Shown here in pieces: positions 4,194 through 20,605 of a stretch of DNA of 64,000 nt (position 1 is its first letter; every line of letters begins with the position of its first letter). The notes under the pieces are model-generated. The model did no database searches. It was given only the letters and a program-made list of their open reading frames with translations, and was not told the DNA's origin. This stretch comes from an uncultured Actinomycetota bacterium. Its GTDB lineage: Bacteria; Actinomycetota; Actinomycetes; Propionibacteriales; Nocardioidaceae. Both the position numbers and the translations under genes were made by a program. Where the stretch lies: contig CAWFGV010000004.1 of assembly GCA_963815445.1 (NCBI GenBank), forward strand, positions 121,346 through 185,345, in the 5' to 3' direction.

Positions 4194-5420
4194 ATGGCAC
4201 AACGGACCTACCTGCACGTCGGGACGCCTACCTCCGGAACGACGTTCCTGCAGCGAGTGCTCTGGCAGAACGCCGCGCCGCTGCGCGCCCAGGGCTTCCT
4301 CCTCCCGGGCCGGATGGTCTCCCACTACACCGCCGCGCGCGCGCTGACCGAGCGGCCGTCGACCGGCGACCACGACGACCGCAGCGAGACCGCCCCGACG
4401 GTCTTGACCGAGATCGGTGACCACGCCTGGACCAAGCTCGTCCGGCAGGTCAACCGCTGGCCCGGTTCGGCCCTGATCGGCCACCCCGCGCTGGCCGCCG
4501 CGACCAGCGAGCAGGCCGGGCGAGCCGTCGCGGCCCTCGAGGGCGAGGTTCATCTGGTGCTGACCGCTCGCCCGGTCCATCTGCAGGCGGCGGTCGCGTG
4601 GCAAGAACAGGTCAAGGCCGGCCGGTCTGCTCCGCTGGACGCGTTCCTCGACCGACTGCAGTCCGACGGCAACCCCGGACAACGTTTCTGGCGCCTGCAC
4701 GACCTGGCCGACATCCTGTCTCGCTGGCAGGGTGCGCTTCCGCCGGAACGCGTGCATGTGGTGACGGTGCCGGGAACGACCCCACACACCCGGCCTGCTG
4801 AGGCGCACGAGCTCTGGACCCGCTACGCCGGCGTGCTCGGGCTCGACGCGGCGGCGTACGACGCCCGCTTCGACGTCGTACCCACCGCCCTCGGTGCGGT
4901 CGAGGCGGAGGTGTTACGTGCCGTCCACGCGCGGCGCGACCCCCGTTTCACGGACCCCCAGCGCCATGTCTGGACGCGGCAGCTGCTCGCCAACGACGTG
5001 CTCTCCCGACGACACGGCGCCCCGCTGCGACTACCACCACAGGCACGCCCGTGGCTGTCGGACCGATCCCGGCGCATGACGGATGGCATCCGTTCGGCCG
5101 GCTACGAAGTTGTCGGTGATCTGGATGTCCTCGGTTGGTCCGACCCTCCGACCGAAGCGCAGCTCCCGGCCGAGGTGACAACGCAGGAGCTGGAATCCCT
5201 TGCCAGCTGGACGATTCTGCGCCTCCAGGAGGCACTCGTTCACCGCGAGCCAGTCACGTCCCCACCGCCGATCGGGCCGGACGACGGAGTCGACGGCATC
5301 ATCGAGCTGCTCGAACACATCCGCGCTGCCGACACCGGCCGACCACCGCGATCCGCGCCGCGCGACCCGTCCCGCGCGCTACGGCTCCGGCAGGCCCTTC
5401 CCGTCCGGCGCAGCCGCTGA
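4194..5420 (+). CDS. Hypothetical protein, sulfotransferase-like P-loop N-terminus
   Basis: 408-aa ORF with GAGGAAGAG just upstream of the ATG. It starts YLHVGTPTSGTTFLQRVLWQN, which resembles the PAPS-binding loop of sulfotransferase-family proteins. The rest has no motif I can name. Confidence 0.5.
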   Translation: MAQRTYLHVGTPTSGTTFLQRVLWQNAAPLRAQGFLLPGRMVSHYTAARALTERPSTGDHDDRSETAPTVLTEIGDHAWTKLVRQVNRWPGSALIGHPALAAATSEQAGRAVAALEGEVHLVLTARPVHLQAAVAWQEQVKAGRSAPLDAFLDRLQSDGNPGQRFWRLHDLADILSRWQGALPPERVHVVTVPGTTPHTRPAEAHELWTRYAGVLGLDAAAYDARFDVVPTALGAVEAEVLRAVHARRDPRFTDPQRHVWTRQLLANDVLSRRHGAPLRLPPQARPWLSDRSRRMTDGIRSAGYEVVGDLDVLGWSDPPTEAQLPAEVTTQELESLASWTILRLQEALVHREPVTSPPPIGPDDGVDGIIELLEHIRAADTGRPPRSAPRDPSRALRLRQALPVRRSR

Positions 5421-5554
5421 AACCCCGCTGCGGGCACTCGCGGCACGAAAATAGTTGCACCTATGCAAACTCTTGACCTGCGCCTTACGACGTGGTTTCC
5501 TGACGGTAGTGGTTGAGACAACTGCCACTGGCTTTCTTTACTGAAGGACCTGTG

Positions 5555-6460
5555 ATGTCTCCCATCTTCACCAGTTCTGACCTTTCTGACCATTTGTACC
5601 AGCCTGAGGCGGATCATCTCACCGCCCATGCGTCCACTCTCCCGACAACGGACGAGCGGGCCGTCCGGACACAGGAGCTGCTCCAGCGGTGTGTCGGCGC
5701 CACTCCACAGGAGCAGGATCTCCTGCACGAGGAGATCGTGCTGCTCAATGTCGAGGTGGCTGAGTCCATCGTGATGCGCTACCGCAACCGGGGTGTGCCG
5801 ATCGAGGACCTCGTCCAGGTCGCCTGTCTCGGCCTCGTCAAGGCGGCCCGCGGTTTCGACCCCGCCAAGAGCGACAACTTCCTCGGGTATGCCGTGCCGA
5901 CCATCCTCGGTGAGGTGAAGCGCTTCTTCCGCGACAACGCCTGGACCGTGCGCCCGCCGAGGCGGATCCAGGAGCTGCAGGCCGAGATCGCCACGACATC
6001 GTCTCAGCTCATGCACGAGTCCGGTCGGGTGCCGACCCCGCACGACGTTGCCGACGCGATCGGGATCGACGCGAAGGACGTGATCGAGGCGCTGTCAGCG
6101 GACGGCTGCTTCTCCCCGACGTCGCTGGACCGTCCGCCGCGCGAAGGCGAGACTGCCCCGCTGGCCGAGGCCCTGGGCTGCGAAGACCCCGGCTTCGCGC
6201 ACGCCGAGGCGGTGGTTGCGCTCCGACCGCTGTGCCAGGGCCTGACCGAGCGTGAACGTCGGATCGTCTATCTGCGGTTCTTCCATGAGTGGACGCAGGC
6301 GCGGATCGCTGAGGAGTTCGGGGTGACGCAGATGCAGGTCTCCCGGCTGTTGACCCGCATCTTTGCCAAGCTGCGCGAGCAGCTCGGGACGCTCGAGGCG
6401 GTCGATGCGACTGGTTCGACCGGGCCGGGTAACAACGACCTCACGTCGATACCGGCCTAG
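5555..6460 (+). CDS. RNA polymerase sigma factor, SigB/SigF/SigG (group 3) type
   Basis: Track ORF starts at TTG 5513. ATG 5555 has GAAGGA 8 nt upstream. LGLVKAARGFDPAKSDNFLGYAVPTILGEVKRFFRDNAWTVRPPRRIQEL covers regions 2.x-3. LTERERRIVYLRFFHEWTQARIAEEFGVTQMQVSRLL is the region 4.2 HTH. Confidence 0.9.
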   Translation: MSPIFTSSDLSDHLYQPEADHLTAHASTLPTTDERAVRTQELLQRCVGATPQEQDLLHEEIVLLNVEVAESIVMRYRNRGVPIEDLVQVACLGLVKAARGFDPAKSDNFLGYAVPTILGEVKRFFRDNAWTVRPPRRIQELQAEIATTSSQLMHESGRVPTPHDVADAIGIDAKDVIEALSADGCFSPTSLDRPPREGETAPLAEALGCEDPGFAHAEAVVALRPLCQGLTERERRIVYLRFFHEWTQARIAEEFGVTQMQVSRLLTRIFAKLREQLGTLEAVDATGSTGPGNNDLTSIPA

Positions 6461-6477
6461 CCGATTCGCGCTCCACG

Positions 6478-7167
6478 TCAGTCGGGCGGCAGCTGCCGCG
6501 TCTCGATGATGTGGCTCGCTACGGAGCGAAGCTTGATGTTGCGTTCCTGCGAGTAACGTCGCAACACCGAGAACGCCTGATCCGGCGTAAGACCGAAACG
6601 TTCCATCAGGATGCCCTGAGCGAGGCCGATCAGGTGCCGCGCGTCGATCGCCTGACGCAGGCCCTCCTCGCGGCGGGCATTCGCCAACGCGACCGAGGCA
6701 TGCTGCCCGAACACGTGGGCCATGGCGGCGTCGTCGGGGCTGAAGTCCCGCACCGACGCCGAGTAGAGGTTCAGGGCCCCGAGCGTCTGCTCACCGGCGA
6801 ACAGCCGCACACTCAGCATGCTGTGCAGGCCGAGCTCGGCGGCCAGCGGACCGAAGCGCGGCCAGCGAGGATCGGTCGCGGTGTCATGCACGAGGAACGT
6901 GTCCTGCGACCAGACCGCCTGCAGGCAAGGTCCCTCGCCGAGCTCGGCTTGCAGCTGGTCAGCCTGCTCGATCACCTCGTGGGTGGCGGCAGCGGTCTCG
7001 ATGGTCTTGTTGCGGACGACGTGAATTCCGACGAAGTCGGTCTCGAGCGTCTGCTGCGCGTAATCCGCGATCCCGGCCAGCGTCTCGTCGACGTCGGGTC
7101 GTTCGAGCAGATCCATCGCCATCTCGGCGAAGTCGGCAGCTGCGAGCTCCACTGGCATTCCTCTCAT
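6478..7167 (-). CDS. GAF and ANTAR domain-containing protein (RNA-binding antiterminator type)
   Basis: C-terminal IDARHLIGLAQGILMERFGLTPDQAFSVLRRYSQERNIKLRSVASHII is the ANTAR signature. The N-terminal roughly 150 aa are GAF-like (GEGPCLQAV, LGALNLYS). Track start is TTG 7173, with ATG candidates at 7167 and 7158. Confidence 0.85.
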   Translation of the reverse strand: MRGMPVELAAADFAEMAMDLLERPDVDETLAGIADYAQQTLETDFVGIHVVRNKTIETAAATHEVIEQADQLQAELGEGPCLQAVWSQDTFLVHDTATDPRWPRFGPLAAELGLHSMLSVRLFAGEQTLGALNLYSASVRDFSPDDAAMAHVFGQHASVALANARREEGLRQAIDARHLIGLAQGILMERFGLTPDQAFSVLRRYSQERNIKLRSVASHIIETRQLPPD

Positions 7168-7255
7168 GGCCAAGTCGTGCGTATGTCGACAGGCCCAGCG
7201 GGCAACCCCCCGAACACATCATTGTCCACCGTCCGGCGTGGCGTTGACCAGCGGC

Positions 7256-7948
7256 TCAAGGTTGGACACGCGCGGTCGGCACTGCCACCCCGCCATCGGC
7301 GCGGAAGTGAAACCACGTCTGGTTCGGGTCCAAGGGGCTCGGCGAGCCGGTGAACCGATGCACCCCGACCGAGAAGAGCTCGTCCGCAGGAGCGTTCCAC
7401 GCCACCTCCTCGAAACCCGCCGCGGCAAACCACGACCTGATCTGCGGCGTCAGATCGGGCGCTCGGCGGGACCGGGTCCAGATCACGGTGGCGCCGGTCG
7501 CTGCCAGCTGGGGGACCGCCGACACCGTGCGTCGTACGTCGTCGTCGCTGATGTTGCCGAAGACGCCGCAGAGCAGGACGAGATCGGCAGGAACGGCGCC
7601 GCCATAGCTGGCTGCGTGACCGGCGTCTGCGGTGCGGACCTCGACGTTCGTCAGCCCGGCCTCGGCGGCGCATCGTCGAGCGGCCTCGGCCAGCGTGGGG
7701 TCGAGCTCGACGAGGACCACTCGCACGAGATCGGCATCGTCACGGTCGGCCAGGACGGCGAGTACGTCGCGGCCGTCGCCGGCACAGGCGCTCACGACGT
7801 GGAGCTGCTCCGACGCGTGCCTGTGGATGGACACCTCGTCGAACCAGTGCCGCAGGTGTGCGCGAATGATCGACAGCCGCCGGTTCAGTGGGTTGTCCGG
7901 CTCGGCGTACTGCTGGTGCCAGTGCTGCCAGTGCGTGTCGTGCGGCAT
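7256..7948 (-). CDS. Class I SAM-dependent methyltransferase
   Basis: VVSACAGDGRDVLAVL (motif I variant), VVLVELDP (acidic motif II) and LLCGVFGNISD. Its first 64 nt overlap the end of the upstream DUF2235 gene in another frame. Confidence 0.7.
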   Translation of the reverse strand: MPHDTHWQHWHQQYAEPDNPLNRRLSIIRAHLRHWFDEVSIHRHASEQLHVVSACAGDGRDVLAVLADRDDADLVRVVLVELDPTLAEAARRCAAEAGLTNVEVRTADAGHAASYGGAVPADLVLLCGVFGNISDDDVRRTVSAVPQLAATGATVIWTRSRRAPDLTPQIRSWFAAAGFEEVAWNAPADELFSVGVHRFTGSPSPLDPNQTWFHFRADGGVAVPTARVQP

Positions 7949-9159
7949 CGGGCCATGGTGGCAGACCGGGCCCCGGGCACGACCTGCTTGGGCCGGTCGA
8001 GGTAGACACCGGCGTCCTCGAGCCTCACGGTGATGCTCTCCACGCTGACCTCAGGCAAGGCGATCACCTGCTCCGTCAGAGCGTCCATGTTCTCGGGCGG
8101 GCGGTCCTCGATTAGCAGCTCCAGGTTGGGAGGTAGGTAGTCCCGCTCGGTGTCGAAGTAATGCGCTCGGGCGGCTGAGGACACGAGCACCCCGCTGCCG
8201 GGCGCGCGCAGGTTGCGCCGTGCACCCACGAAGAGCTCCTTCTCCTCCGCCCGGCGGGGCCGGACGCGCTCGCGCAGGTTCGAGATCCGGTAGAACCACC
8301 GCAGCGAGCTGTGCCGGATGGCAGGCGACTGACCGGCGATGTAGGAGTCCAGCAGCGGGCGGTCGAAGACGAGCCCCCGCAGGTTTGCCTCGCTCACCAT
8401 CCAGAGGAGTGCAGTGTCCGACAACCCGGTCTCGCCGTAGCCACCGCCGACGTCGGAGTGCGCGCCCTCGAACCAGACCTGCTTGATCCGGTCGGGTTCG
8501 TCGGGACGGTCCGGTGCCTCCCACAGGCACGGCGCGAACACCATGCGTCCCTCGTCGATGGCGAGCGCCTGACGCGCGCACTGCACCGACTCACCCAGCC
8601 GGATGTCGTGGAACTGGTGGTCCTTCGGCAGTATGCCGGGAACGCCGAGTGCACCGACCGTGTCGAAGACGCCGATGAACTTCGTGGGGGTGTCCGGGTG
8701 GCAGAAGTCGCGCTTGAACTCCTCGTTGCTGGCACCGAACGCACCCGATGCCGGCCTCTTGCGCTGGTAGCGGGTCACGGCTTCGGGCAGCTTGTCCGCG
8801 ATGACGGATCGCCGCGTGAGCAGGCCGACGTACCCGATCATGCCAACGAGGCTGCGCGCGGTGTAGGCACCGCGGCTGAAGCCGAACACGAAGATCTCGT
8901 CGCCCTCCTCGTAGTTGAGCGCGAGGAATCGGTAGGCGGTCTTCACGTTGTTGAACAAACCCGAGCCGAAGGCGCCGCCGAGCAGCTGGTCGAGCTTGTA
9001 ACCGATGCCGACCCCACCGACATACAGCACGAGCTGCTGCACCCCACCGGATGCCGTCGGATCCGTCTGGATCGTGCGCGCGATCTTTTCGATATTGGTG
9101 ATGTGTGCGCTGTCCGGCTTGTTCCAGGTGCCGTCACAGCAGACCACGAGGCGCTTCAT
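7885..9159 (-). CDS. DUF2235 / T6SS Tle1-like alpha-beta hydrolase domain protein, no signal peptide
   Basis: This is the C-terminal 425 codons of the 820-aa track ORF. The ATG at 9159 gives MKRLVVCCDGTWNKPD, the typical DUF2235 start. It has the nucleophile elbow VFGFSRGAYTARS, then DTVGALG and EGAHSDVGGGYG. Upstream of 9159 the ORF is antisense shadow of the cyclase gene. Confidence 0.8.
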   Translation of the reverse strand: MKRLVVCCDGTWNKPDSAHITNIEKIARTIQTDPTASGGVQQLVLYVGGVGIGYKLDQLLGGAFGSGLFNNVKTAYRFLALNYEEGDEIFVFGFSRGAYTARSLVGMIGYVGLLTRRSVIADKLPEAVTRYQRKRPASGAFGASNEEFKRDFCHPDTPTKFIGVFDTVGALGVPGILPKDHQFHDIRLGESVQCARQALAIDEGRMVFAPCLWEAPDRPDEPDRIKQVWFEGAHSDVGGGYGETGLSDTALLWMVSEANLRGLVFDRPLLDSYIAGQSPAIRHSSLRWFYRISNLRERVRPRRAEEKELFVGARRNLRAPGSGVLVSSAARAHYFDTERDYLPPNLELLIEDRPPENMDALTEQVIALPEVSVESITVRLEDAGVYLDRPKQVVPGARSATMARCRTTRTGSTGTSSTPSRTTH

Positions 9160-9321
9160 CTGGCCCTCCAGCCCAACGTGTCCTCTCGTTGTGGTGCTAA
9201 GGAGGCTAGTCGCGCTCGAGCGATACCGGATCAGCCACTCGGTCAGACTTCTCAGAGCCGGGTGCGCCTGTGGCGCGGCTTCGGTCTGACATTTCCCGCT
9301 GGTGGGTATTAGTCTCCCCGG

Positions 9322-12300
9322 ATGGTGTCCTGTCCTTCGTGTGGTGATGAGAACCCGGACGGGAAGAAGTTCTGCGGTGAGTGCGCGGCGCCGTTGGCTG
9401 CTCCGGCCCGGGGTCTGGGGGAGGAGCGCAAGGTTGTCACGTCGTTGTTCTGTGATCTGGTGGGGTTCACGGCGACGTCGGAGTCGGCGGATCCCGAGGA
9501 CGTGAACATGATGTTGGCGGCGTATTTCGCGATGGCGCGCAAGCATATCGAGGGTTTCGGTGGGACGGTGGAGAAGTTCATCGGGGACGCGGTGGTGGGA
9601 GTGTTCGGGGTTCCGGTGGCGCATGAGGATGATCCGGAGCGTGCGGTGCGGGCGGGGTTGAAGATCGTGGAGGCGGCTGAGGAGTTGCGGTCGGTGGGGG
9701 ATGCGCCGTTGGTGATGCGGGTCGGGGTCAACACCGGACCGGCGTTGGTGCGGCTTGGGGCGGTGCCGGGTTCGGGGGAGGGGATGTTGGCTGGGGATGC
9801 GATCAACACGGCATCGCGGTTGCAGTCGGTGGCGCCGGAGATGGGGGTGGCGGTCGGAGTCGGCACCTTTGAGGCGACGGCACGGGTCTTTGAGTACGAC
9901 GAGCTGGAGCCGGCGGTGGTGAAGGGGAAGGCGGAGCCGGTGCGGGTGTTCTGGGCGAAGGCTTCGCTGGCCCGGTTCGGGACCGACATCACCCGCACCC
10001 ATGACTCCCCGTTTGTGGGTCGGGAGATCGACCTGGCGGTGCTGAAGGGGGTGTTCGACAAGACGGTCGCTGCGGCGGCGCCGCAGCTGGTCACGGTCGT
10101 GGGGGAGCCGGGGTTGGGCAAGTCGCGGTTGGTGGCGGAGCTGTTCTCCTATATCGATGACCGGCCTGGTCTGGTCCGGTGGCGGCAGGGGCGTTGTCTG
10201 CCTTATGGGGAGGGGATCACCTATTGGGCGTTGGGGGAGATCCTCAAGGCCCATACCGGGATCTTGGACTCCGACCCGCCAGTGACGGCTCAGACCAAGC
10301 TGGATGCGGTGTTGCCGGCGGGGTCGGAGCGGGAGTGGTTTCGGCAACGGCTGCTGCCGCTGCTGGGGATCGAGGCGACGTCAACCGCGGAACGCGACGA
10401 GCTGTTCACGGCGTGGCGCCGGTTCTTCGAACATGTCGCCGACCTGGACCCGACCGTGTTGGTGTTCGAGGACCTGCACTGGGCCGACCCGGCCATGCTG
10501 GCGTTCCTGGAACATCTCGCGGACCGCGCCGAAGGGGTCCCGCTGCTGGTCGTCGGCACGGCCCGGCCGGAGCTGTTCGACCACCACCCCGACTACGCCC
10601 GCGGGTTACGCAACACCACCTCGATCAACCTGGTCCCGTTGACGCAGGCCGAGACGACCCGGCTGGTGTGCGGATTGTTGGACACCACCGTGATCCCGGC
10701 CGAGCTGCAGACCCCGATCCTGGAACGGGCCGGTGGTAACCCGCTGTATGCCGAGGAGTTCCTCCGGCTCCTCAAGGACAAGGAGCTCCTCGTGCACCAC
10801 GGTGCGAGCTGGGGGCTGGTCCAGGATGCCGAGATCCCGTTCCCCGACACCGTGCAGGCGTTGATCGCGGCCCGCCTGGACACCCTGGCTCCGGACCGCA
10901 AAGCGCTGCTGGCTGATGCTGCTGTGGTCGGGAAGGTGTTCTGGGCGGGTGCGGTCGCGGCGATGGGCGACGTGGCCGAGGTCGACGTCGTGGACCTCCT
11001 GCATGAGCTGTCCCGCAAGGAGCTCGTGCGACCGTCTCGCCGTTCCACCATGGAAGGCGAGGCCGAGTACGCGTTCTGGCATGTGCTCGCACGTGACGTC
11101 GCCTACAGCCAGATCCCCCGTGCCTCCCGCGCCGCCCGCCACGTCGCCGCCGCGACCTGGATCGAGTCCAAGGCCCCGGACCGGCTGGAGGACCTCGCCG
11201 ACGTGCTCGCCTACCACCACACCGCCGCCCTGGACCTCGCGACCGCCGCCGGACAGGCCGACCTCACCGACCTGCAGGAGTCCGCACTGCGGTTCCTCAC
11301 CCTGGCTGGTGAACGTGCCCTCGGACTGAACACCGCCGCCGCCCTGGACGCCTTCGAACGCGCCCTGGTCCTCACCCCGGCCGGACACCCCACCCGGCCC
11401 GACGCCCTCACCCACTTCGCCGACGCCGCACGAAACAGCGGCCGCAACGCCGACGCCGCCACCGCCCTCGACGAAGCCATCACCATCTACCGTCAACGCG
11501 ACGACACCCGCGCCGCCGCCCGCACCATGACCACGCTGGGCAGCGTGCTGGAACGACTCAACGACCCTCGTAGCCGCGAGCTCTCTGCCCAAGCCCTAAA
11601 CCTCCTCGAACCCCTGACGCCCGGCCCCGATCTGGTCGAGGCACTGCTGAATGTCGCAGAAGATGCAATTTTCGCTGGGAGGCCCGAGGAAGGCATCACC
11701 CTCATCGAGCGAGCCCTCACCATTGCCGCCGAGGCTGGTCTGCCCCGACCACCCCTAGCCTTCGCGGCGCGCGGCAACGGCCGAAGCTATCTCGGCGACG
11801 CAGGCGGGCTGCAGGACTACCGCGATGCCATCGAGCTGCAGACCCAGGCCGGACAGGGCAGACGTGCCGCGATCAACTACAACAACCTCGGCGTCGCTCT
11901 CCGCAACTTCAATGGGCCGCAAGCAGCCTTGGACGTCTTGTCTGAAGGCCTTGCGTTTGCCACCCCCCGCGGGCTCGAAGACGTGGCGCTGATAGTCCGG
12001 GGCAGCGCGCTACCGGCGATGCTCAGCAGCGGCGACATCCCCGCAACCCTCACCGCAGCAGCCGAGCTGGCAGTGCACGCCGACGACACCGGCGACGAGC
12101 TCAGCCTTGTCGAGATCCGAGCCGTCCAGGCACTTGCGCTTACCTACACCGGCCGCGCCGACGAAACCCGAGGCGTCCTCGACCTGATCGTCAACGCTGC
12201 CCGGCGATCAGGCCGGCCCGACCTGATCGTCTCCGGGTTCGGCTGTCCAGCGGTCGTCTACGCCACCCTCGGTAGCCACCAGACGACAGTTCAGTTGCTC

Positions 12301-12738
12301 ACCGACATCGAGACCACCCCCGGTCTCGACGACGCCAGTGAGCTCGCCACCTACCTGCCCACGATCGTGCGTTCCGCCATCACGATCGGTGACCCCGGCC
12401 TCGCCGAACGCCTCGCCCGCCACCTCGCCCCCCGATACCCCTACGCCGAACATGCCCTGGCCGCTGTCCGAGCAGCACTCGCGGAAGCACACGGCGAAAC
12501 CGACACCGCCGCCGCCGGCTACGCCGACGCCGCCGCCCGCTGGCAGAGTTTCGGCGACATACCCGAGCAAGGCTTCGCACTGCTCGGCTCAGGCCGTTGT
12601 CTGCTCGCCCTCGCACGCCACGAAGAGGCCAAGGAACCCTTGCTGGCCGCCCGCGACGTCTTCACCCGCTGCGGCATGCTCCCCGCTCTCGAAGAGACCG
12701 AGACGTTACTGGCCAAGGCCACGCCTCTCAGCTCCTAG
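9322..12738 (+). CDS. Zn-ribbon / class III adenylate-guanylate cyclase / STAND (AAA) NTPase / TPR multidomain protein, paralogue 1
   Basis: CPSCGDENPDGKKFCGEC zinc ribbon. Cyclase core FCDLVGFT, EKFIGDAVVGVFG, RVGVNTG and GDAINTASRLQS. Walker A GEPGLGKSRLVAE and Walker B VLVFEDLHWAD. About 600 aa of TPR-like helical repeats follow, ending FALLGSGRCLLALARHEEAKEPL. Confidence 0.9.
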   Translation: MVSCPSCGDENPDGKKFCGECAAPLAAPARGLGEERKVVTSLFCDLVGFTATSESADPEDVNMMLAAYFAMARKHIEGFGGTVEKFIGDAVVGVFGVPVAHEDDPERAVRAGLKIVEAAEELRSVGDAPLVMRVGVNTGPALVRLGAVPGSGEGMLAGDAINTASRLQSVAPEMGVAVGVGTFEATARVFEYDELEPAVVKGKAEPVRVFWAKASLARFGTDITRTHDSPFVGREIDLAVLKGVFDKTVAAAAPQLVTVVGEPGLGKSRLVAELFSYIDDRPGLVRWRQGRCLPYGEGITYWALGEILKAHTGILDSDPPVTAQTKLDAVLPAGSEREWFRQRLLPLLGIEATSTAERDELFTAWRRFFEHVADLDPTVLVFEDLHWADPAMLAFLEHLADRAEGVPLLVVGTARPELFDHHPDYARGLRNTTSINLVPLTQAETTRLVCGLLDTTVIPAELQTPILERAGGNPLYAEEFLRLLKDKELLVHHGASWGLVQDAEIPFPDTVQALIAARLDTLAPDRKALLADAAVVGKVFWAGAVAAMGDVAEVDVVDLLHELSRKELVRPSRRSTMEGEAEYAFWHVLARDVAYSQIPRASRAARHVAAATWIESKAPDRLEDLADVLAYHHTAALDLATAAGQADLTDLQESALRFLTLAGERALGLNTAAALDAFERALVLTPAGHPTRPDALTHFADAARNSGRNADAATALDEAITIYRQRDDTRAAARTMTTLGSVLERLNDPRSRELSAQALNLLEPLTPGPDLVEALLNVAEDAIFAGRPEEGITLIERALTIAAEAGLPRPPLAFAARGNGRSYLGDAGGLQDYRDAIELQTQAGQGRRAAINYNNLGVALRNFNGPQAALDVLSEGLAFATPRGLEDVALIVRGSALPAMLSSGDIPATLTAAAELAVHADDTGDELSLVEIRAVQALALTYTGRADETRGVLDLIVNAARRSGRPDLIVSGFGCPAVVYATLGSHQTTVQLLTDIETTPGLDDASELATYLPTIVRSAITIGDPGLAERLARHLAPRYPYAEHALAAVRAALAEAHGETDTAAAGYADAAARWQSFGDIPEQGFALLGSGRCLLALARHEEAKEPLLAARDVFTRCGMLPALEETETLLAKATPLSS

Positions 12739-12791
12739 CGAGTTGTCAGAAGTAGGGAGGGCTATCGCCGTCCGTACTTCTGACAACTCGG
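12739..12791. repeat. Palindromic intergenic repeat, copy 1 (CGAGTTGTCAGAAGTA ... TACTTCTGACAACTCGG)
   Basis: Perfect 16-bp arms at 12739-12754 and 12775-12790. The loop GGGAGGGC TATC GCCGTCC can pair further with one mismatch. The element starts one nt after the stop of cyclase paralogue 1. Confidence 0.85.
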
Positions 12792-12829
12792 TCCTGACAA
12801 GGTGGGGCAGCGGGCCATAGTCTCGGCTG

Positions 12830-15800
12830 GTGCAGTGTCCTTCGTGTGGTCATGACAATGCCGAGGGGCACAAGTTCTGCAGTGAGTGCGCCGCGTCGCT
12901 GTCGGTCGCAGGACGCAACCTGCGGGAAGAGCGCAAGGTCGTCACCTCGCTCTTCTGTGATCTCGTCGGCTTCACTGCGACCTCGGAGTCCGCTGATCCC
13001 GAAGACGTCAACACGATGCTCGCCGCCTATTACGCCATGGCCCGCAAGCACATCGAGTCCTTCGGCGGCACGGTAGAGAAGTTCATCGGTGACGCCGTCG
13101 TGGGCGTCTTCGGCGTACCCGCCGCACACGAGGACGATCCAGAACGTGCCGTCCGTGCCGGGCTGAAGATCATCGAGGCGGCTGAAGACCTCGCCTCTGT
13201 CGGCGGCGAACCGCTGGCCCTGCGGGTCGGGATCAACACCGGGGAAGCGCTGGTCCGCCTGGGAGCACGGCCGGGCGCCGGTGAGTCGATGCTGGCCGGA
13301 GATGCGATCAACACCGCCTCTCGCCTGCAGTCGGTCGCACCTGAGCTGGGCGTCGCAGTCGGACTTGGTACGTACGAAGCCACGCGGCAGATCTTCGAGT
13401 ACGACGAGCTCGAACCGGCGGCGCTGAAGGGCAAGGCAGAACCAGTGCGGGTGTTCTGGGCGAAGGCGCCTCGCGCGAGGTTCGGAACCGACGTGACGCG
13501 ACGACACGACACGACCTTCGTCGGGCGCGAGATCGACCTGGCGATCCTGAAGGGCGTCTTCGAGAAGACGGTGGCACAGAGCGCGACCCAGCTGGTCACG
13601 ATCATCGGGGAACCCGGTGTCGGGAAGAGTCGTCTGGTCGCGGAGCTCTTCGCGCACATCGAGGAGCGCACGGAACTGATCCGCTGGCGGCAGGGCCGAT
13701 GCCTCCCGTACGGCGAAGGGGTGACCTTCTGGGCTCTGGGCGAGATCCTCAAGGCACACACCGGAATCCTCGAGTCCGACCCACCCGCAACAGCAGCAGC
13801 CAAGCTCGACGTCGTCCTGCCCGAAGGCGCCGAGCGCGAGTGGTTCCGACAACGCCTGCTGCCCCTTCTTGGCATCGAGGCCTCATCATCCGCTGAGCGC
13901 CAGGAGCTGTTCACGGCCTGGAGGCGGTTCCTCGAGCAGATGGCAGAGCAGGACCCCACCGTGTTGGTGTTCGAGGACCTTCACTGGGCCGACCAGGCCA
14001 TGCTGGACTTCCTCGAACACCTCGCTGACCGGGCCGAGGGGCTGCCCCTGCTGATCATCGGGACCGTCCGGCCGGAGCTGTTCGACCACCACCCCGACTA
14101 TGCCCGCGGGCTGCGCAACAACACTCCGATCAATCTCGCACCGCTCTCCCAATCGGAGACCACGCGCCTTGTGTGCTCCCTGCTCGAGACAAGCGTCCTC
14201 CCGGCGGAGCTGCAAACTCCGATCCTGGAGCGTTCCGGTGGCAATCCGTTGTACGCCGAGGAGTTCGTCCGTCTCCTCAAGGACCGAGATCTGCTGGTCA
14301 AGACCGGATCCGCCTGGGCGCTGGCCGAAGACGCGGACATCCCGTTCCCGGACTCTGTGCAAGCACTGATCGCGGCGCGCCTGGACACTCTCTCTCCCGA
14401 ACGCAAGGCCGTGCTGGCCGACGCCGCGGTCATCGGGAAAGTCTTCTGGGCCGGCGGGATAGCCGCCATGGGCGGCCTCGGCGTATCGGACGTGGTCGAG
14501 GTGATGCGCGAGCTCTCCCGCAAGGAGCTCGTGCGGCCGGCCCGCCGTTCTTCGATGGAGGGCGAAGCGGAGTACTCGTTCTGGCATGTGCTGGCCCGCG
14601 ACGTCGCCTACGCCCAGATTCCCAGGGCATCACGAGCGTCCCGTCACGTCGCCGCAGCCGGCTGGGTCGAGTCGACGTCACCGGGGAGGCTCGAGGATCA
14701 CGCGGACGTGTTGGCCTACCACTACACCGCCGCGCTGGAGCTGGCGAAGGCTGCAGGGCAGCGTGACCTGACAGACCTGGAGACCCCCGCGACCCGGTTT
14801 CTCATCCTGGCCGGAGAGCGGGCCCTCGGGCTGGACACCGCCGCGGCTCTCGACGCGTTCGAACGCGCCCTCGCACTGACCCCGGTCGGTCATCCAGCCC
14901 GCGCGGAGACGCTGAGTCGGTTCGGAGATGCCGCCCGTCAGGCGGGACGGCTCAACGACGCCGTCAGCGCACTCGAGGAAGCGGTCGCCCTCTTCGCTGA
15001 CCGCGGCGAGGTGCTCCCCCGCGCGCGCGCGATCAGCGTCCTGTCCGGAGTTCTCCAACGAGTCAACGACCCGCGGTCCGTCAGCCTCTCCGCTAGGGCC
15101 TTGGCCGATCTCGAAGGAATCCCACCCGGCCCCGAACTGATCGACCTGCTCGCCGATGTCGCGTCGGACGCGGCTTCCACCGGCCGCGCCGAGGAGGGCA
15201 TCGCGCTCTCCGAGCGAGCTCTCGCAGCCGCCGAGAGGGCGTCCCTTCCGCGGCCGGCTCGCGCTCTGGGGAGCCTGGCGAATGCGCGCACCGTCCTGGG
15301 CGATGCTGGCGGTCTGGACGACTACCGCGAAGCGTTGAAGCTCGCGATTCAGGCCGGGCAGGGCAGAGTTGCTGGGCTGTTGTACAACAACCTCGGGGTC
15401 GCGTTGCGCCACTTCGAGGGCTCCCGCGCAGCCCTGGAGGTGTTTGCCGAGGGGATCGCCTTTTCCACCTCGCGGGGCATCGACGAAGTGGCGATCTTGA
15501 CGCGCACCAGCTCGCTGCCAGCGATGCTCAACGAGGGTGACCTGCAACGAACGCTGGCGGCCGCGGACGAGGTCGCCAAGCACGCGCATGACAGCGGCGA
15601 CGAGTTCGACCTGGTAGAGATCGGGGGGGTCCAGGCGAACATCCTGACCTACCTTGGAGTGACCGACGTCGCGACTGACTTGCCTGACCGGCTGGCCCGA
15701 ATGGCGCGCCGTTCCAGTCGACCGGATCTCGCTGCGGGGGGTCTCGGAACTGCCGCGATCCTCCTCGTGGCACGGGCAGAGCCAGCGGCCGCAGCGGAGC

Positions 15801-16267
15801 TCATGGAGGAACTGGCGACGACGACAGGGCTGGAGGGCTCGTCCGAGCTGGCCAACTACCTTGCACCGGTCGTGCGGGCCAGCGTCGCCATCGACCGGCC
15901 AGATCTCGGCGAACGACTCGCGGCACGACTCCTGCCGCGCTACAAGAGCGCCGAGCACGCCTTGGCCGCCAGCGAGGCTGTGCTGGCCGAAGCCCACGGA
16001 GACACGGAGCAGGCGGTCGTGGCCTATGCGGACGCACTCGAGCGATGGCAGGAGTTCGGAGTCGTACCAGAGCAGGGATTTGCGCTCCTGGGGCGAGGGC
16101 GTTGTCTGCTGGCCCTGTCCCGGAACGAAGAGGCCAAGGCGTCCCTGTCTGCGGCCCGGGACATCTTCGCCCGCTGCGGCATGCTGCCTGCGTTGACGGA
16201 GACCGACGAGCTACTCGCCGACGCAACCCGCACTCACTTCCTGATTGTCAGAAGTGGAGGGGGCTAG
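12830..16267 (+). CDS. Zn-ribbon / class III adenylate-guanylate cyclase / STAND (AAA) NTPase / TPR multidomain protein, paralogue 2
   Basis: Co-linear with paralogue 1 over the full length and carries the same motifs (CPSCGHDNAEGHKFCSEC, FCDLVGFT, FIGDAVVGVFG, GDAINTASRLQS, GEPGVGKSRLVAE, VLVFEDLHWAD). By eye roughly three quarters of residues are identical. Confidence 0.9.
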   Translation: MQCPSCGHDNAEGHKFCSECAASLSVAGRNLREERKVVTSLFCDLVGFTATSESADPEDVNTMLAAYYAMARKHIESFGGTVEKFIGDAVVGVFGVPAAHEDDPERAVRAGLKIIEAAEDLASVGGEPLALRVGINTGEALVRLGARPGAGESMLAGDAINTASRLQSVAPELGVAVGLGTYEATRQIFEYDELEPAALKGKAEPVRVFWAKAPRARFGTDVTRRHDTTFVGREIDLAILKGVFEKTVAQSATQLVTIIGEPGVGKSRLVAELFAHIEERTELIRWRQGRCLPYGEGVTFWALGEILKAHTGILESDPPATAAAKLDVVLPEGAEREWFRQRLLPLLGIEASSSAERQELFTAWRRFLEQMAEQDPTVLVFEDLHWADQAMLDFLEHLADRAEGLPLLIIGTVRPELFDHHPDYARGLRNNTPINLAPLSQSETTRLVCSLLETSVLPAELQTPILERSGGNPLYAEEFVRLLKDRDLLVKTGSAWALAEDADIPFPDSVQALIAARLDTLSPERKAVLADAAVIGKVFWAGGIAAMGGLGVSDVVEVMRELSRKELVRPARRSSMEGEAEYSFWHVLARDVAYAQIPRASRASRHVAAAGWVESTSPGRLEDHADVLAYHYTAALELAKAAGQRDLTDLETPATRFLILAGERALGLDTAAALDAFERALALTPVGHPARAETLSRFGDAARQAGRLNDAVSALEEAVALFADRGEVLPRARAISVLSGVLQRVNDPRSVSLSARALADLEGIPPGPELIDLLADVASDAASTGRAEEGIALSERALAAAERASLPRPARALGSLANARTVLGDAGGLDDYREALKLAIQAGQGRVAGLLYNNLGVALRHFEGSRAALEVFAEGIAFSTSRGIDEVAILTRTSSLPAMLNEGDLQRTLAAADEVAKHAHDSGDEFDLVEIGGVQANILTYLGVTDVATDLPDRLARMARRSSRPDLAAGGLGTAAILLVARAEPAAAAELMEELATTTGLEGSSELANYLAPVVRASVAIDRPDLGERLAARLLPRYKSAEHALAASEAVLAEAHGDTEQAVVAYADALERWQEFGVVPEQGFALLGRGRCLLALSRNEEAKASLSAARDIFARCGMLPALTETDELLADATRTHFLIVRSGGG

Positions 16268-16292
16268 AGCCGCCTGTACTTTGATCACTCGG
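16243..16292. repeat. Palindromic intergenic repeat, copy 2 (degenerate)
   Basis: GATTGTCAGAAGTGGAGGGGGCTAGAGCCGCCTGTACTTTGATCACTCGG aligns with copy 1 but with a decayed right arm. The stop of paralogue 2 (TAG 16265-16267) lies inside it. The convergent lipoprotein reading frame ends at 16300. Confidence 0.65.
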
Positions 16293-16299
16293 TGGGGGG

Positions 16300-17206
16300 T
16301 CAGTGGCAGACGTCGTGGAGGAGCCCCATCGCCTGAGCCTGGAGGGATCTGGGCGGCTCGATGATCTCGGTGTGCGGGCGGCCGGACCCGACCCGGACGA
16401 TCGCAGTAAAGATGAACGTCTGCTGGCTCGACGACAGGGCATGCGGCTCGCAGCGGTCATTGCCCTGGATCAGCACCGGCACGGTGCACAGCCTGCTGTC
16501 CTGTGTCCAGCCGCGCAACCTCGCCTCGAGGCGGATCGTCGGGGAAGACCTCGAGGAGAACGCTGCCGAGGATCGAGTCGATCACCACGCGGCTGCCCGA
16601 CCCACCGTCCGCTGGCCGCTTCAGGACCAGGGCACCCACCAGGCTCGGCAGCCCGTGGACCACCTCGCGGCGGAACGGCGTCCGGTAGGTCAGAGAGCCG
16701 GCAGCGACCAGGGCAGCGTGCGCGCAGCCGTCGTCGTGCAACTGGGTGAGCTCGTCGATGCCGAGCCGGTCGACCGGGAGTCGCAGCTCGCCGGAACCGT
16801 CCTCCGCCGTGTAGTCGACGACCACGGTCGCGTCCCGCGCCGAGGCACCTGGACCACAGACCGGATCGCCGTAGTCGACGGTGAGGTCGATGGTCCGGCC
16901 GGGTGTGAAGTCGGTGTCCTTGGCGGTGGGCGGTTGGCCCTCGAAGGCCGAGGTCTCGAGCCGCACCTGGTCGACATGCAGCGCGGTCTTCGCGTCGGTC
17001 GTGAGCTCCAGTCCGATCCGTCGCGTCCCGATGTCGGCCCGCTGCTGGACCACCGTGGCCGTCAATCCGACGGGTGCTTGTCCGACGGAAGACCCATCAC
17101 CCGGTGTCGTCTCCCCCGGCCTGTCGCTCGTCCCGCCTCCCGTACAGCCAGCGAGCACGACGAGCAGTCCCACCGCCGCGCCCGCAGCCCAAGCTGTTGA
17201 CCGCAC
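16300..17206 (-). pseudogene. Lipoprotein gene, probably frameshifted near 16541-16544
   Basis: The track ORF 16457..17206 starts MRSTAWAAGAAVGLLVVLAGCTGG (signal peptide plus LAGC lipobox). Its last 25 or so codons are rich in A/T-ending codons. The overlapping 16300..16518 ORF in another frame has G/C-ending codons and protein-like sequence. The total span of 907 nt is not a multiple of 3. Confidence 0.5.
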
Positions 17207-17221
17207 CGCATTCCCCGTCCT

Positions 17222-17274
17222 CGAGTTGTCAGAACCAACTGGCCCTCCAGCGCTGCCTTATTCTGACAAGTCGG
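17222..17274. repeat. Palindromic intergenic repeat, copy 3 (core inverted relative to copy 1)
   Basis: CGAGTTGTCAGAACCAACTGGCCCTCCAGCGCTGCCTTATTCTGACAAGTCGG. The arms GAGTTGTCAGAA / TTCTGACAAGTC have one mismatch. The core GCCCTCC is the reverse complement of the GGAGGGC in copy 1. It lies between the divergent lipoprotein and GGDEF gene starts. Confidence 0.75.
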
Positions 17275-17411
17275 GTGGACGGACCCTAGGACCATCGACC
17301 GAACGGGCAGATCTGCCTCGCAAATGCCTCTATTACGCTGCGTATGTGTCTTGCCACCGTCTGTAGGGCGCATGCTTGAGCACATTGCTCCACCTCTCTG
17401 TCAGGAGTGCC

Positions 17412-18446
17412 ATGCCCACCCGGGATGACGCACGTATTCGCAGCCTCGCCACGATGGCGCGCGCCCTCGGCCGTTCCGAGGCTCTCCTGACGCTGCTCGA
17501 GATCGCGTCGGAGGAGGCCCGTCAGGCGCTGGCTGCCAGCACCGCGTCGATCAGCCGCCTCGAGCAAGGATCGACGACCGTCCGGACGCTCATCAACGTC
17601 GGTGAGCTCGGCCCAACCGAGGAGCGGTGGCCGCAGGACGAGACGTACGACATGGGGTCCTTCTCCAACCTCGAGCTCGTGCTCGCGGACTCGAAGACCT
17701 GGACCGCATCGATCGATGATCCCGACGCCGCGCCGGCGGAGCTCGACCTCCTCCGTCAGCTGCACAAGGGGACCTCGTTGGGATCACCCATCATCGTCGA
17801 CGGTCAGCTCTGGGGAGAGTTCTACGCGACGCGGCCGGTCGGTGCACCGGCCTTCGACACCGACGACATCGCCTACATCGAGGCCCTCGTCGCCATCTTG
17901 TCCGGATCCATCTCGCGTTCACTCCGCGAGGAGTCACTCGAGCAGCTGGCGTTCCAAGACCCCCTCACGGGACTCTGGAACAGACGTGCCCTTGATGAGC
18001 GCGCCGCCCAGGCCTTCAACGTTCCCGCGGACTCGACCCGGATCATCAGCGTCGTCCAGGTGGACATCAACCGCCTCAAGGAAGTCAACGACGAGCTCGG
18101 CCACCACGCCGGGGACCAGCTCATCCAGTCCGTCGCGCGCACGTTGCTCGCGGAGTTCAGCGGACTGCCGGCGAGCCTGGTGGCGCGCGTCGGCGGAGAC
18201 GAGTTCACCGTCCTGGTGGTTGGCCACGAGCCGGCGACCGTCGCCACTGTGGTGGAGCGGCTGAGCCAACGCGCGTGGCAGCTCGGCGTACAACCCGGCG
18301 TCTCGTGCGGAATCGCCAGCGCCGTCCTCACACCCGAGTCGAAGATCACCCCCAGCGAGCTGTTCGCCGCCGCCGACCAGGCCCAGTACACGACCAAGCG
18401 CCGCCACGGCAGGGCATCGACCGCCCTTGGCGGCATCGTCGGCTGA
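17412..18446 (+). CDS. GAF domain-containing diguanylate cyclase (GGDEF)
   Basis: FQDPLTGLWNRRALDE, VDINRLKEVNDELGHHAGDQLI and RVGGDEFTVLV. The N-terminal roughly 170 aa are GAF-like (GSPIIVDGQLWGEFYA). ATG 17412 has AGGAG 4 nt upstream. The track ORF begins at TTG 17376. Confidence 0.85.
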   Translation: MPTRDDARIRSLATMARALGRSEALLTLLEIASEEARQALAASTASISRLEQGSTTVRTLINVGELGPTEERWPQDETYDMGSFSNLELVLADSKTWTASIDDPDAAPAELDLLRQLHKGTSLGSPIIVDGQLWGEFYATRPVGAPAFDTDDIAYIEALVAILSGSISRSLREESLEQLAFQDPLTGLWNRRALDERAAQAFNVPADSTRIISVVQVDINRLKEVNDELGHHAGDQLIQSVARTLLAEFSGLPASLVARVGGDEFTVLVVGHEPATVATVVERLSQRAWQLGVQPGVSCGIASAVLTPESKITPSELFAAADQAQYTTKRRHGRASTALGGIVG

Positions 18447-18505
18447 TCGTCCGCAGGCTCGACCGGCTCGGCGGAAACCACAGACCCAGCGGCTACTCTG
18501 CGCGT

Positions 18506-19198
18506 ATGTCGCGCATCGTGTTGATCGAGGACGATCCGGCGATCCGGCGTTCCCTCGCGCGAGACCTGCGTGCCAACGGCCACGTCGTCACCACCACGGA
18601 GTCAGGGGCTGAGGGGTTGTCGACCGCACTCGCGCACTCTCCGGATGTCGTCATCCTCGACCTCGGACTTCCCGACCTCGACGGGCGAGACGTCCTGGCG
18701 ATGCTGCGCGCGGTGCGCGACGTGCCCGTCATCGTCGCCACCGCGCGTGACGATGACGCGAGCATGGTCAAGCTGCTCGACGCCGGCGCGGACGACTACG
18801 TGGTGAAGCCGTTCCGGGCGGCCCAGATCGAAGCCAGGATCCGAGCCGTGCTCCGACGGGCTGCCCCTGGCCAGGCACGGGCCGACGATGCCATCGAGGT
18901 GGGCCGGCTCCGCATCGACCCGAGCAGCCGGGAGGTCCGGCTCGACGATGAGCGCATCGACCTCTCACGCAAGGAGTTCGATCTCATCTTCGCGCTGGCG
19001 CGGCGGACCGGAGATGTGGTGTCGAAGAACGAGCTGCTCGCCGAGGTGTGGCAGCAGCCCTGGGGTGGTGGCGACCGAACCGTCGACGTGCACCTGTCGT
19101 GGCTGCGCCGCAAGCTCGGCGAGACGGCGGCCGAGCCCCGGTACCTCCACAGCATCCGCGGCGTGGGCATCAAGCTCGCCCCGCCCGAAGGCGATTGA
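18506..19198 (+). CDS. OmpR/PhoB-type response regulator
   Basis: MSRIVLIEDDPAIRRSL, VILDLGLPDLDG and DDYVVKPF form the receiver domain. The C-terminal winged helix reads SRKEFDLIFALARRTGDVVSKNELL...VDVHLSWLRRKL. The track ORF 18275..19198 has an implausible upstream extension. Confidence 0.9.
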   Translation: MSRIVLIEDDPAIRRSLARDLRANGHVVTTTESGAEGLSTALAHSPDVVILDLGLPDLDGRDVLAMLRAVRDVPVIVATARDDDASMVKLLDAGADDYVVKPFRAAQIEARIRAVLRRAAPGQARADDAIEVGRLRIDPSSREVRLDDERIDLSRKEFDLIFALARRTGDVVSKNELLAEVWQQPWGGGDRTVDVHLSWLRRKLGETAAEPRYLHSIRGVGIKLAPPEGD

Positions 19199-19201
19199 CC
19201 C

Positions 19202-20548
19202 GTGCGGCGACGCATCCTGACGCTGACCGTCGGCCTCACCGCCACCGTGATCCTCGCCTTCGCCATCCCGCTCGCCTTCCTGATCTACCAGTCCGTCGAG
19301 AGCTCGGCGCTGGATCACGCCCGCTTCGAGGCCGAGGGCGTGGCCGGGTTCATCGGAGCGGGGTCTCCGACCGAGTCAGACGTGACGCAATTCCTCACCC
19401 ACCGCGACGACCGCGACCACGCAACGACCTGGGTCGTTGGCCCCAGTGGCACCGTGCTCGGTACGCCGCCCACGGGCGTACCGAACGTGAGCGCCCGCGG
19501 TCCTGACCTCGACGCCGATGGCGATGGGCGCATCGGTGATGTGGCGCCCACCAACGTGGAAGACGTCGGCACAGGCGTCGTCACCCAGGTGCAGGCGCTC
19601 ACCCAGAGCGGAACCTGGACAGTGCGCACCTATCTCACTGATGCGCAGCTGCGTGAAGGCCTGGCCGCCCGGTGGTCGATCCTCACCGCCGTCACGTTGG
19701 CACTGCTCGCCGGCAGCGTCGCCGCTGGGGAGTTGTCAGCTCGGCGGTTGGCCCGACCGCTTGAAGACGCAGCCAGCACGGCCCATCGGTTGGCGACCGG
19801 CGACACGATAGCCCGGGCCAGCACCGACGGCCCCCGTGAGGTGGCCGAGGTGGGGGCCGCGCTCAACCAGCTCGCTGATCGGATCGACGAGGTGATCGCC
19901 ACCGAACGTGAGGCGGTCGCCGACCTGTCGCATCGCCTGCGTACTCCGTTGACCGCACTACGCCTCGACATCGACGCGCTCGACGATCCGGCGGACGCGG
20001 CCAGGTTGAGCGAGCACGCCACGAACCTGGAACGGTCCCTGACCGCGATCATCCACGCGGCCCGGCGGCCGGCCCGCGAGGGACGGTTCCCCGGCTGTGA
20101 CGCGGCCGACGTCGTCCGACAGCGGGTCGACTTCTGGACGCCGCTCGTCGTCGACCAGGACCGCCACACCACGATCGACATCGCGAACACGCCCACGTCG
20201 GTACGTCTCGCGCGCGACGACCTGACCGCGGCCGTGGACGCCCTGATCGAGAACGTCATCGCCCACACCGCCGAAGGCACGGACTTCGAGGTGTCGGTAC
20301 GCCACGACACGTCTGAGGACCGACCGATGGTCGTCGTGACAGTCGCCGATCACGGCGAGGGCATGCCGGCCGGCGTCGGCGTGCGCGGCCGAAGCGACCG
20401 GGGCTCGACCGGTCTCGGCATCGACATCGCCCGACGAGCAGCCGATGACAGTGGCGGGTTCCTCCGGCTCGGCCAGCACGATCCCACCGGCGCCCGGGTG
20501 GAACTGTGGCTCGGCACACCCTCTCAGGTCGGTCACAGCACGATTTGA
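19202..20548 (+). CDS. Sensor histidine kinase (two TM segments, HAMP, HisKA, HATPase)
   Basis: GTG start 3 nt after the regulator stop. H-box ADLSHRLRTPLTAL, and the ATPase G-boxes DHGEGMP and GSTGLGIDIARR. Confidence 0.9.
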   Translation: MRRRILTLTVGLTATVILAFAIPLAFLIYQSVESSALDHARFEAEGVAGFIGAGSPTESDVTQFLTHRDDRDHATTWVVGPSGTVLGTPPTGVPNVSARGPDLDADGDGRIGDVAPTNVEDVGTGVVTQVQALTQSGTWTVRTYLTDAQLREGLAARWSILTAVTLALLAGSVAAGELSARRLARPLEDAASTAHRLATGDTIARASTDGPREVAEVGAALNQLADRIDEVIATEREAVADLSHRLRTPLTALRLDIDALDDPADAARLSEHATNLERSLTAIIHAARRPAREGRFPGCDAADVVRQRVDFWTPLVVDQDRHTTIDIANTPTSVRLARDDLTAAVDALIENVIAHTAEGTDFEVSVRHDTSEDRPMVVVTVADHGEGMPAGVGVRGRSDRGSTGLGIDIARRAADDSGGFLRLGQHDPTGARVELWLGTPSQVGHSTI

Positions 20549-20605
20549 CCCTGATTTGACCTCGCGTTGCGGTCCACCTGAGGGGTGCCGGGCGATGCTC
20601 GGTAC

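Follow-up and report, generated by a model that had tools for sequence, protein, structure and literature searches.

Paralogous cyclase-STAND-TPR proteins encoded in a variable gene array of a Nocardioidaceae bacterium: candidate ligand-gated nucleotide cyclases

We analyzed a 64,000-nucleotide stretch of DNA (hereafter, the window) from an uncultured actinobacterium of the Nocardioidaceae (assembly GCA_963815445.1, contig CAWFGV010000004.1, positions 121,346 to 185,345), which carries on its forward strand two adjacent and co-oriented genes for large paralogous proteins, copy A (9322..12738, ATG start, 1138 aa) and copy B (12830..16267, GTG start, 1145 aa). Both proteins join an N-terminal zinc ribbon and a class III nucleotide cyclase to a STAND NTPase and a C-terminal TPR sensor. 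It seems probable, although well short of certain, that A and B are independent cytoplasmic ligand-gated nucleotide cyclases, which are built on a MalT/PH0952-type STAND switch and serve ordinary signaling rather than phage defense. We regard them as independent receptors because neither copy shares its promoter-like motif or hairpin with the other, each retains the full catalytic set, and the difference between them lies mainly in the sensor.

A and B are new members of a very large, long-annotated and biochemically unexplored family found in soil actinobacteria. A search based on shared words returned more than 8000 matches, of which the top 120 are 62–90% identical to the query and 1006–1172 aa long (most of them 1135–1141 aa), the named ones among these 120 being annotated as "class 3 adenylate cyclase/TPR repeat protein". 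An exhaustive search gathered 19,946 clusters (50% identity) at E ≤ 1e-30. Our findings leave current concepts unchanged: annotations of this architecture go back years, and the mechanism that we propose below is the expected one. What we add to an earlier note on this DNA, made from the sequence alone, is the structure of the repeat unit, the history of gain, loss and recombination of the array, its independence from the neighboring genes, the link to SARP regulators and a non-canonical residue in the base pocket of the cyclase.

Domain layout, STAND module and cyclase active site

The earlier note described two co-linear open reading frames of 1138 and 1145 aa lying 91 nt apart, and its coordinates proved exact; GC content at third codon positions (0.83 in A and 0.80 in B) is of the coding type. 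The four-part architecture that it had read from motifs was recovered by a Pfam scan in both proteins, with matches to Zn_Ribbon_1, Guanylate_cyc, AAA_16 and TPR_12 plus TPR_16, and every quoted zinc-ribbon, cyclase and P-loop/Walker motif is present in both. In copy A, the zinc ribbon occupies residues 4–25 (nt 9331–9396), the class III cyclase residues 37–206 (nt 9430–9939; E 1.7e-17) and the AAA_16 NTPase residues 230–411 (nt 10009–10554; E 5e-23), followed by the HD and WHD (helical and winged-helix domains of the STAND module) and the arm at about residues 416–650 (nt 10567–11271), delimited with an AlphaFold2 (AF2) model and fold search, and by the TPR sensor at about residues 651–1134 (nt 11272–12723), delimited with Pfam and the model. 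In copy B, the corresponding parts are the zinc ribbon at residues 3–24 (nt 12836–12901), the cyclase at residues 35–205 (nt 12932–13444; E 1.3e-19), AAA_16 at residues 229–410 (nt 13514–14059; E 2e-26) and the TPR sensor at about residues 650–1133 (nt 14777–16228). For the cyclase model (PF00211), the scores of 64.1 (A) and 70.9 (B) bits lie above the curated threshold of 21.9. The TPR-like part is shorter than the roughly 600 aa first assigned to it, since the actual repeats span about 480–530 aa and residues 416–650 belong to the HD, WHD and arm. Neither LuxR/GerE nor any other helix-turn-helix (HTH) family was detected by Pfam in A, B or seven further paralogues of the same genome, which agrees with the lack of a C-terminal LuxR domain pointed out before.

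We followed residue conservation across 80 aligned family members, A and B included, and give it in copy A numbering. The Walker A residues G261, G266, K267 and S268, the Walker B residues E383 and D384, and R415 are invariant in all 80. The AF2 model of the protein has a mean pLDDT of 77 and is confident over residues 230–1138 (pLDDT 80–98), with all-helical repeats at residues 600–1133 (pLDDT 85–98) and TPR-like helices continuing up to the C-terminus. Compared with the PDB by Foldseek, it finds as its top match PH0952 (6mfv; E 4e-14), a STAND protein with a TPR sensor; further matches include Avs3 (8dgc), Apaf-1 (1z6t, E 8e-9; 3sfz), SAMD9 and CED-4. A profile search of the PDB matched the TPR part with the TPRs of LGN/Pins, while the NTPase part gave no PDB match in the sequence-level search and was identified by the fold search only. 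The model thus confirms, as a prediction, a true STAND module (a P-loop nucleotide-binding domain (NBD) with helical and winged-helix domains) equipped with an arm and a TPR sensor, in the order of effector, NTPase and repeat sensor that was originally proposed. As for the label of an Avs-type switch, the likeness in fold to Avs3 stands, but the immune role that it implies is disfavored by gene context and evolutionary rates (see below).

In the cyclase domain, D45, K85, D89, N162 and R166 are invariant in 80/80 family members. Both the metal-binding aspartate pair (D45, D89) and the transition-state Asn/Arg (N162, R166) are therefore present in A and B, and the statement that the catalytic signatures are kept is borne out for the cyclase as it is for the Walker motifs. 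The domain matches solved class III cyclases with E-values of 7e-22 (sequence) and 3e-26 (profile), the best being Cya2 (2w01), and judging from these residues the enzyme looks active.

Its product is a different matter. At the second base-specifying position, adenylate cyclases have Asp or Thr and guanylate cyclases have Cys or Gly, so that the canonical pairs are Lys with Asp/Thr and Glu with Cys/Gly, respectively. A and B have neither: K85 is kept, yet its partner at position 155, seven residues before the Asn, is the hydrophobic Met. Among the 80 relatives this position holds Phe in 35, Met in 23, Leu in 15 and Val in 6, and it is Met or Leu in 7 of the 8 cyclase-STAND paralogues of the source genome. 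The aligned controls differ from this and from each other, 5oyh showing the adenylate cyclase form K-D and the guanylate cyclase Cya2 (2w01) E-G. Since the second residue is Met, Phe or Leu rather than Asp or Thr, the sequence does not settle the identity of the product. Cyclic AMP (cAMP) appears the most likely one, given the invariant Lys85, but it is not secure. A non-canonical output (cGMP, cCMP, cUMP or a promiscuous mix) from the Lys-plus-hydrophobic pocket is a possibility to which we give about a quarter of the weight, and it would fit either biological role discussed here; it draws on the residues at position 155 and on Pycsar cyclases, which show that pyrimidine specificity can be reached with a class III-type fold (PMC11224242). 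Against it speaks Lys85, which is the adenylate cyclase state and is invariant. Class IIIb adenylate cyclases, moreover, tolerate Thr or Ser in place of the Asp, and the best PDB neighbors of the A/B domain belong to class IIIb.

On the reading of A and B as ligand-gated cyclases, the NTPase module of the resting protein would hold ADP, the arm and TPR sensor would keep it closed, and the N-terminal cyclases would be monomeric and inactive. Binding of a ligand to the TPR sensor would open the NTPase module, ADP would be swapped for ATP and the protein would multimerize. Class III cyclases need head-to-tail dimers for catalysis, and multimerization would let the cyclase domains form them. The 3′,5′-cyclic nucleotide then made, most likely cAMP, would act as a diffusible signal read by receptors encoded elsewhere in the genome, which has six domains predicted to bind cyclic nucleotide monophosphates (cNMPs). 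For its STAND part, this scheme draws on PMC6468293, where the resting state, the inducer-triggered ADP-to-ATP switch and multimerization of STAND proteins are described; the coupling of that part to cyclase dimerization we infer. In the literature we found no demonstration that STAND multimerization activates a class III cyclase.

Divergence of the copies and history of the array

The proteins A and B align without gaps from end to end and are 70% identical (789/1133 residues, BLASTP), somewhat less than the three of four residues estimated by eye. Identity amounts to 85% in the cyclase, 79% in the NTPase and 78% in the HD/WHD/arm, and drops to 56–58% in the TPR part, with a minimum of 32% around residues 950–1000; the divergence between the copies is concentrated in the sensor. 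This makes A and B natural variants, with enzyme and switch 79–85% identical, convenient for sensor-swap work. At the nucleotide level they are also 70% identical, and at only 50% of the identical residues is the codon shared, in keeping with the earlier remark that many shared residues use different codons. By the NG86 method, dN is 0.22, dS 1.17 (saturated) and omega 0.19. The saturated dS together with the low omega indicates that the duplication is old and that both copies have been under purifying selection, as had been surmised from their intactness. The domain-wise estimates of omega are 0.06 for the cyclase, 0.12 for the NTPase, 0.13 for the HD/WHD/arm and 0.27–0.38 for the TPR part; purifying selection acts on every domain of both copies, and no positive selection was seen at the scale of domains, where every omega lies below 0.4.

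We compared the source genome (G000) with congeneric genomes (G001, G002, G003, G004, G006 and G007). The array site lies between a divergent DUF2235/Tle1-like alpha/beta hydrolase gene (7885–9159, reverse strand; Pfam E 9e-80) and a lipoprotein-like gene (16457–17206, reverse strand), beyond which stands a GAF-GGDEF gene. At this site, G007 carries two intact copies, and G004 the same number together with a frameshifted one and a C-terminal remnant, besides a further intact copy elsewhere in its genome; G002 has three copies, only the last of which is intact. The broken copies of G002 (locus L016, 3134–10050) and G004 (L014, 14063–17712), including the 60-aa C-terminal remnant, could be either true pseudogenes or consensus indel errors of the assemblies. 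In the three more distant congeners (G001, G003 and G006) the site is empty, with the flanking genes kept and no cyclase gene between them. An assembly artefact as the source of the second copy is excluded by the 70% DNA identity of the copies and by arrays at the same site in four congeneric genomes, so the tandem copy is real. The description as a tandem pair holds for two intact adjacent genes, but what it captures is one of the states of an array that varies in copy number, and not a fixed two-gene unit.

In a maximum-likelihood tree, the copies of the genus and one protein from a Nocardioidaceae metagenome-assembled genome (MAG) form a single clade with a support of 100. Within the genus clade at least five paralogue lineages can be told apart, different subsets of which are retained by different species; A pairs with the relocated copy of G004 and B with the copy in position 3 of G002. 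The phylogeny is one of birth-and-death evolution that followed a single acquisition. Full-length relatives (E ≤ 1e-200) occur in 30 of the 301 genomes of a phylum-wide sample. These genomes belong to other families, and outside the genus no listed genome of the same class has a relative at that threshold; the named relatives are mostly MAGs of Thermoleophilia and Gaiellales. A horizontal origin of the array gene is therefore likely.

Compared with its orthologue in G002 (L016), copy B shows a DNA identity of 79–89% over 12739–14750, 97–99% over 14830–15950 and then about 80% again, and dS is 0.09–0.15 in the TPR part vs. about 0.5 in the flanking genes. The high identity and low dS relative to the flanks indicate a recent exchange between lineages that was limited to the TPR sensor segment of B. 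We also observed that A and the first, broken copy of G002 are 90–99% identical, the adjacent upstream flank (9160–9300) being only 85–87% identical.

Each copy appears to be part of a repeat unit composed of promoter, gene and hairpin. A promoter-like motif, CTGACA-N18-TAGTCT, read from the sequence at 9287..9315 (forward strand), ends 6 nt before the ATG of A, which points to an mRNA with a very short leader or none for this copy. The same motif, at 12794..12823 (forward strand), ends 6 nt before the GTG of B, where an automated scan reported CTGACA-16-CATAGT at 12794–12821. Immediately 3′ of the A stop codon, at 12739..12790 (forward strand), we found a perfect-type hairpin of 52 nt (24-nt arms, 4-nt loop) with an RNA fold of −42.2 kcal/mol (z = −9.3). 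It is a probable terminator or unit boundary, and no T-run follows on its 3′ side. A decayed copy, located by repeat search at 16240..16290 (forward strand; −28.1 kcal/mol, z = −2.9), overlaps the 3′ end of B, whose last 11 residues (THFLIVRSGGG) are a read-through into the element. The palindrome 3′ of each copy has the sequence TTGTCAGAAGT...ACTTCTGACAA, and the same element stands behind all the copies of the G002, G004 and G007 arrays. No Rfam RNA element was detected within positions 5000–21000 of the window. With a motif and a hairpin for each, the copies are probably transcribed separately. As a side observation, positions 17226–17269, next to where the lipoprotein-like gene begins, contain another related palindrome, the third (TTGTCAGAACC ... 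inverted TTGTCAGAATA), and in the G004 and G007 arrays palindrome half-sites precede the first copy.

These data bear on a different arrangement, in which A and B would form an obligate hetero-oligomer, either as a sensor/helper pair or as a heterodimeric cyclase like the mammalian C1/C2. Class III cyclases can function as heterodimers, the two genes are adjacent and co-oriented, and both copies have long been kept intact. We nevertheless consider this arrangement the least probable of those weighed here, as the full set of catalytic residues is found in both proteins, with no C1/C2-like complementary loss, and as each gene has its own promoter-like motif, with a strong hairpin between them. 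The congeners, too, keep one, two or three intact copies and no fixed A+B pairing: in G002 only a B-type copy is intact, the G004 copy most closely related to A lies elsewhere in that genome, and G007 has two other lineages.

Gene context and the weighing of signaling against defense

Upstream of A, the hydrolase gene forms a pair with an S-adenosylmethionine (SAM) methyltransferase gene (7256–9159, reverse strand, divergent from A); in G003, the hydrolase gene is split by a stop. Further out, at 5513–7173 and 17376–20548, genes for a sigma-70 family factor and for GAF-ANTAR, GAF-GGDEF and HAMP histidine kinase proteins are kept in congeners with or without the array. The hydrolase and methyltransferase, GAF-ANTAR or GAF-GGDEF genes were rejected as obligate partners of the cyclases, given that the flanks adjoin without cyclases in G001, G003 and G006, and none of these genes accompanies the cyclase-STAND family at other loci. 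When 634 flanking open reading frames from 80 loci of other genomes were clustered, no recurrent neighbor emerged, the best cluster being present in 8 of 77 loci; typical neighbors encode MFS transporters, pyridoxal-phosphate enzymes, short-chain dehydrogenases/reductases, acyl-CoA dehydrogenases, MeaB and ArsR, and more than one copy of the family gene is found in 10 of 79 loci. Insertion of a tRNA-linked island was considered and rejected as well: a tRNA or tmRNA is present in 15 of 58 loci, directly adjacent in 3–4 of them, which is at most a weak enrichment, and within 12 kb of the A/B locus no tRNA was found.

The source genome (3.6 Mb) encodes 16 cyclase domains and the six cNMP-binding domains, so it has a signaling network that can receive a cyclic-nucleotide output. 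At least nine of the cyclase domains are fused to AAA_16; with about 20,000 clusters (50% identity) known, such fusions are numerous both here and overall. On the contig of A and B, the nearest cNMP_binding gene is more than 100 kb away. Three other cyclase genes of the genome (C5:453830–458916, C5:596879–601149 and C5:411676–412526) lie about 0.2–2.5 kb from a cNMP_binding gene and, unlike A/B, represent possible cyclase-receptor pairs; the cyclases at C5:453830 and C5:596879 are AAA_16 fusions (the third is at C5:412119). One paralogue, L006 (C5:596879–598810, 1132 aa), is a cyclase-AAA_16 protein that ends in a prokaryotic SLOG/LSDAT-like segment (PF18171, E 6e-8) with no recognizable TPRs. 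SLOG domains are proposed sensors of nucleotide derivatives.

The principal competitor of a signaling role is an Avs/NLR-type sensor of phages or other mobile elements, whose TPR part would recognize a protein of the invader and whose cyclase would make an alarm nucleotide or deplete NTPs, with the effector encoded elsewhere. In its favor, the STAND fold resembles Avs3 and Apaf-1; copy number varies, and congeners show broken copies and empty sites; the retention of paralogue lineages, of which there are at least five, is differential; the sensor of B was recently exchanged (97–99% identical to G002 vs. 79–89% in the rest of the gene); and PADLOC reports PycC matches in the cyclase domain. In addition, a 2026 preprint (10.64898/2026.08.12.744502) describes a clade of fusions between cNMP cyclases and STAND NTPases and predicts it to be immune. 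Yet, that clade is defined there by fast evolution and by conflict genes in the neighborhood, and the fusions named contain NACHT or AP-ATPase domains and not the AAA_16/MalT type, whereas the cyclase of A and B evolves slowly (omega 0.06) and even the TPR part stays below 0.4. Neither here nor at 77 other loci does a cNMP-binding effector or a conflict gene adjoin the family genes, the neighbors being metabolic. The PADLOC matches are confined to the cyclase, where the general Pfam model scores at least as well, the effector is of a signaling type, and SARP transcription activators come closest in architecture. Taken together, we judge a defense role unlikely. An equally unlikely, more elaborate scenario is that of a receptor repertoire, in which a cyclase-STAND gene gained by horizontal transfer multiplied at its site, copies were retained, lost and reshuffled, and whole TPR segments were exchanged between species as in NLR clusters. 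The different sensors would then feed one shared signal, perhaps a non-canonical one in view of the Lys/Met base pocket typical of the cyclase-STAND paralogues of this genome, in answer to biotic cues such as molecules of phages or competitors; if true, the array would be a MalT-clade counterpart of the predicted immune cyclase-STAND fusions.

The assignment of A and B to ordinary ligand-gated signaling has its own weak points. Tandem amplification, pseudogenes, patchy distribution and exchange of sensor segments are also typical of immune receptor families. The scheme assigns no role to the four-Cys zinc ribbon, whose cysteines are retained in 79–80 of the 80 aligned family members. In the cyclase, the Asp/Thr that canonically specifies adenine has given way to Met in A and B and to Phe, Met, Leu or Val in the family, which makes ATP as the substrate an assumption, and the AF2 model, with pLDDT below 50 (25–49) over residues 27–226, lends no structural support to the active site; the low values probably come from a shallow, high-identity alignment. 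Finally, the literature yielded no characterized TPR-only cyclase-STAND and no biochemical data for any TPR-only member, consistent with the earlier comment that this form has no assigned ligand or output.

Comparison with known systems

Of the defense systems, Pycsar has in common with A/B the class III-type cyclase fold (PADLOC PycC, E 3e-14 and 2e-17), but its PycC is encoded next to a cNMP-binding TIR or transmembrane effector, none of which stands beside A or B. Proteins of the predicted "immune clade 1" are, like A/B, fusions of a cyclase with a STAND NTPase; they differ in their NACHT/AP-ATPase modules, A/B having an AAA_16/MalT-type module, a slowly evolving cyclase domain and housekeeping neighbors. 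The A/B segment from cyclase through AAA_16 to arm also aligns to positions 279–894 of TIGR03903, the "TOMM system kinase/cyclase fusion protein" (E 1e-66). Here, the scores of 225.6 (A) and 228.1 (B) bits remain below the cut-off of 705.75, the match begins at model positions 263–279 and includes no kinase part, and the A/B locus lacks a TOMM gene context.

Closer in architecture are the Mycobacterium tuberculosis proteins Rv0386, Rv1358 and Rv2488c (mclx), which display cyclase, AAA_16-type STAND NTPase and TPR in the same order as A/B. They possess a C-terminal LuxR/GerE HTH that A/B lack, and A/B in turn have the N-terminal four-Cys zinc ribbon. The base-specifying pair of Rv0386 is reported to be Gln/Asn, compared with Lys/Met in A/B. 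The catalytic domain of Rv0386 is absent among the PDB sequence matches to the A/B cyclase at E ≤ 0.001, and the two cyclase domains are thus not close. The mclx genes have been described as an actinobacterial multigene family prone to pseudogenization (PMC4452763).

The nearest regulators we identified are AfsR-like proteins of the SARP-(cyclase)-AAA_16-TPR type, which have the cyclase/NTPase/TPR body in common with A and carry an OmpR-type DNA-binding domain plus BTAD at the N-terminus, where A/B have the zinc ribbon. Three SARP fusions from metagenomes (Trans_reg_C plus BTAD; P0132, P0155 and P0183) are 44–49% identical to A over nearly the whole length, and in two of the three the Pfam match to the cyclase is lost at the threshold of E ≤ 1e-5, so that the unmatched region may be a degenerate cyclase serving as a scaffold. 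This close relationship places the family among AfsR/MalT-type regulators. With MalT/PH0952-type STANDs, A and B have in common the NBD-HD-WHD core, the arm and the TPR sensor, and what sets them apart is the effector, which is a DNA-binding domain in the former and a nucleotide cyclase with a zinc ribbon in A and B.

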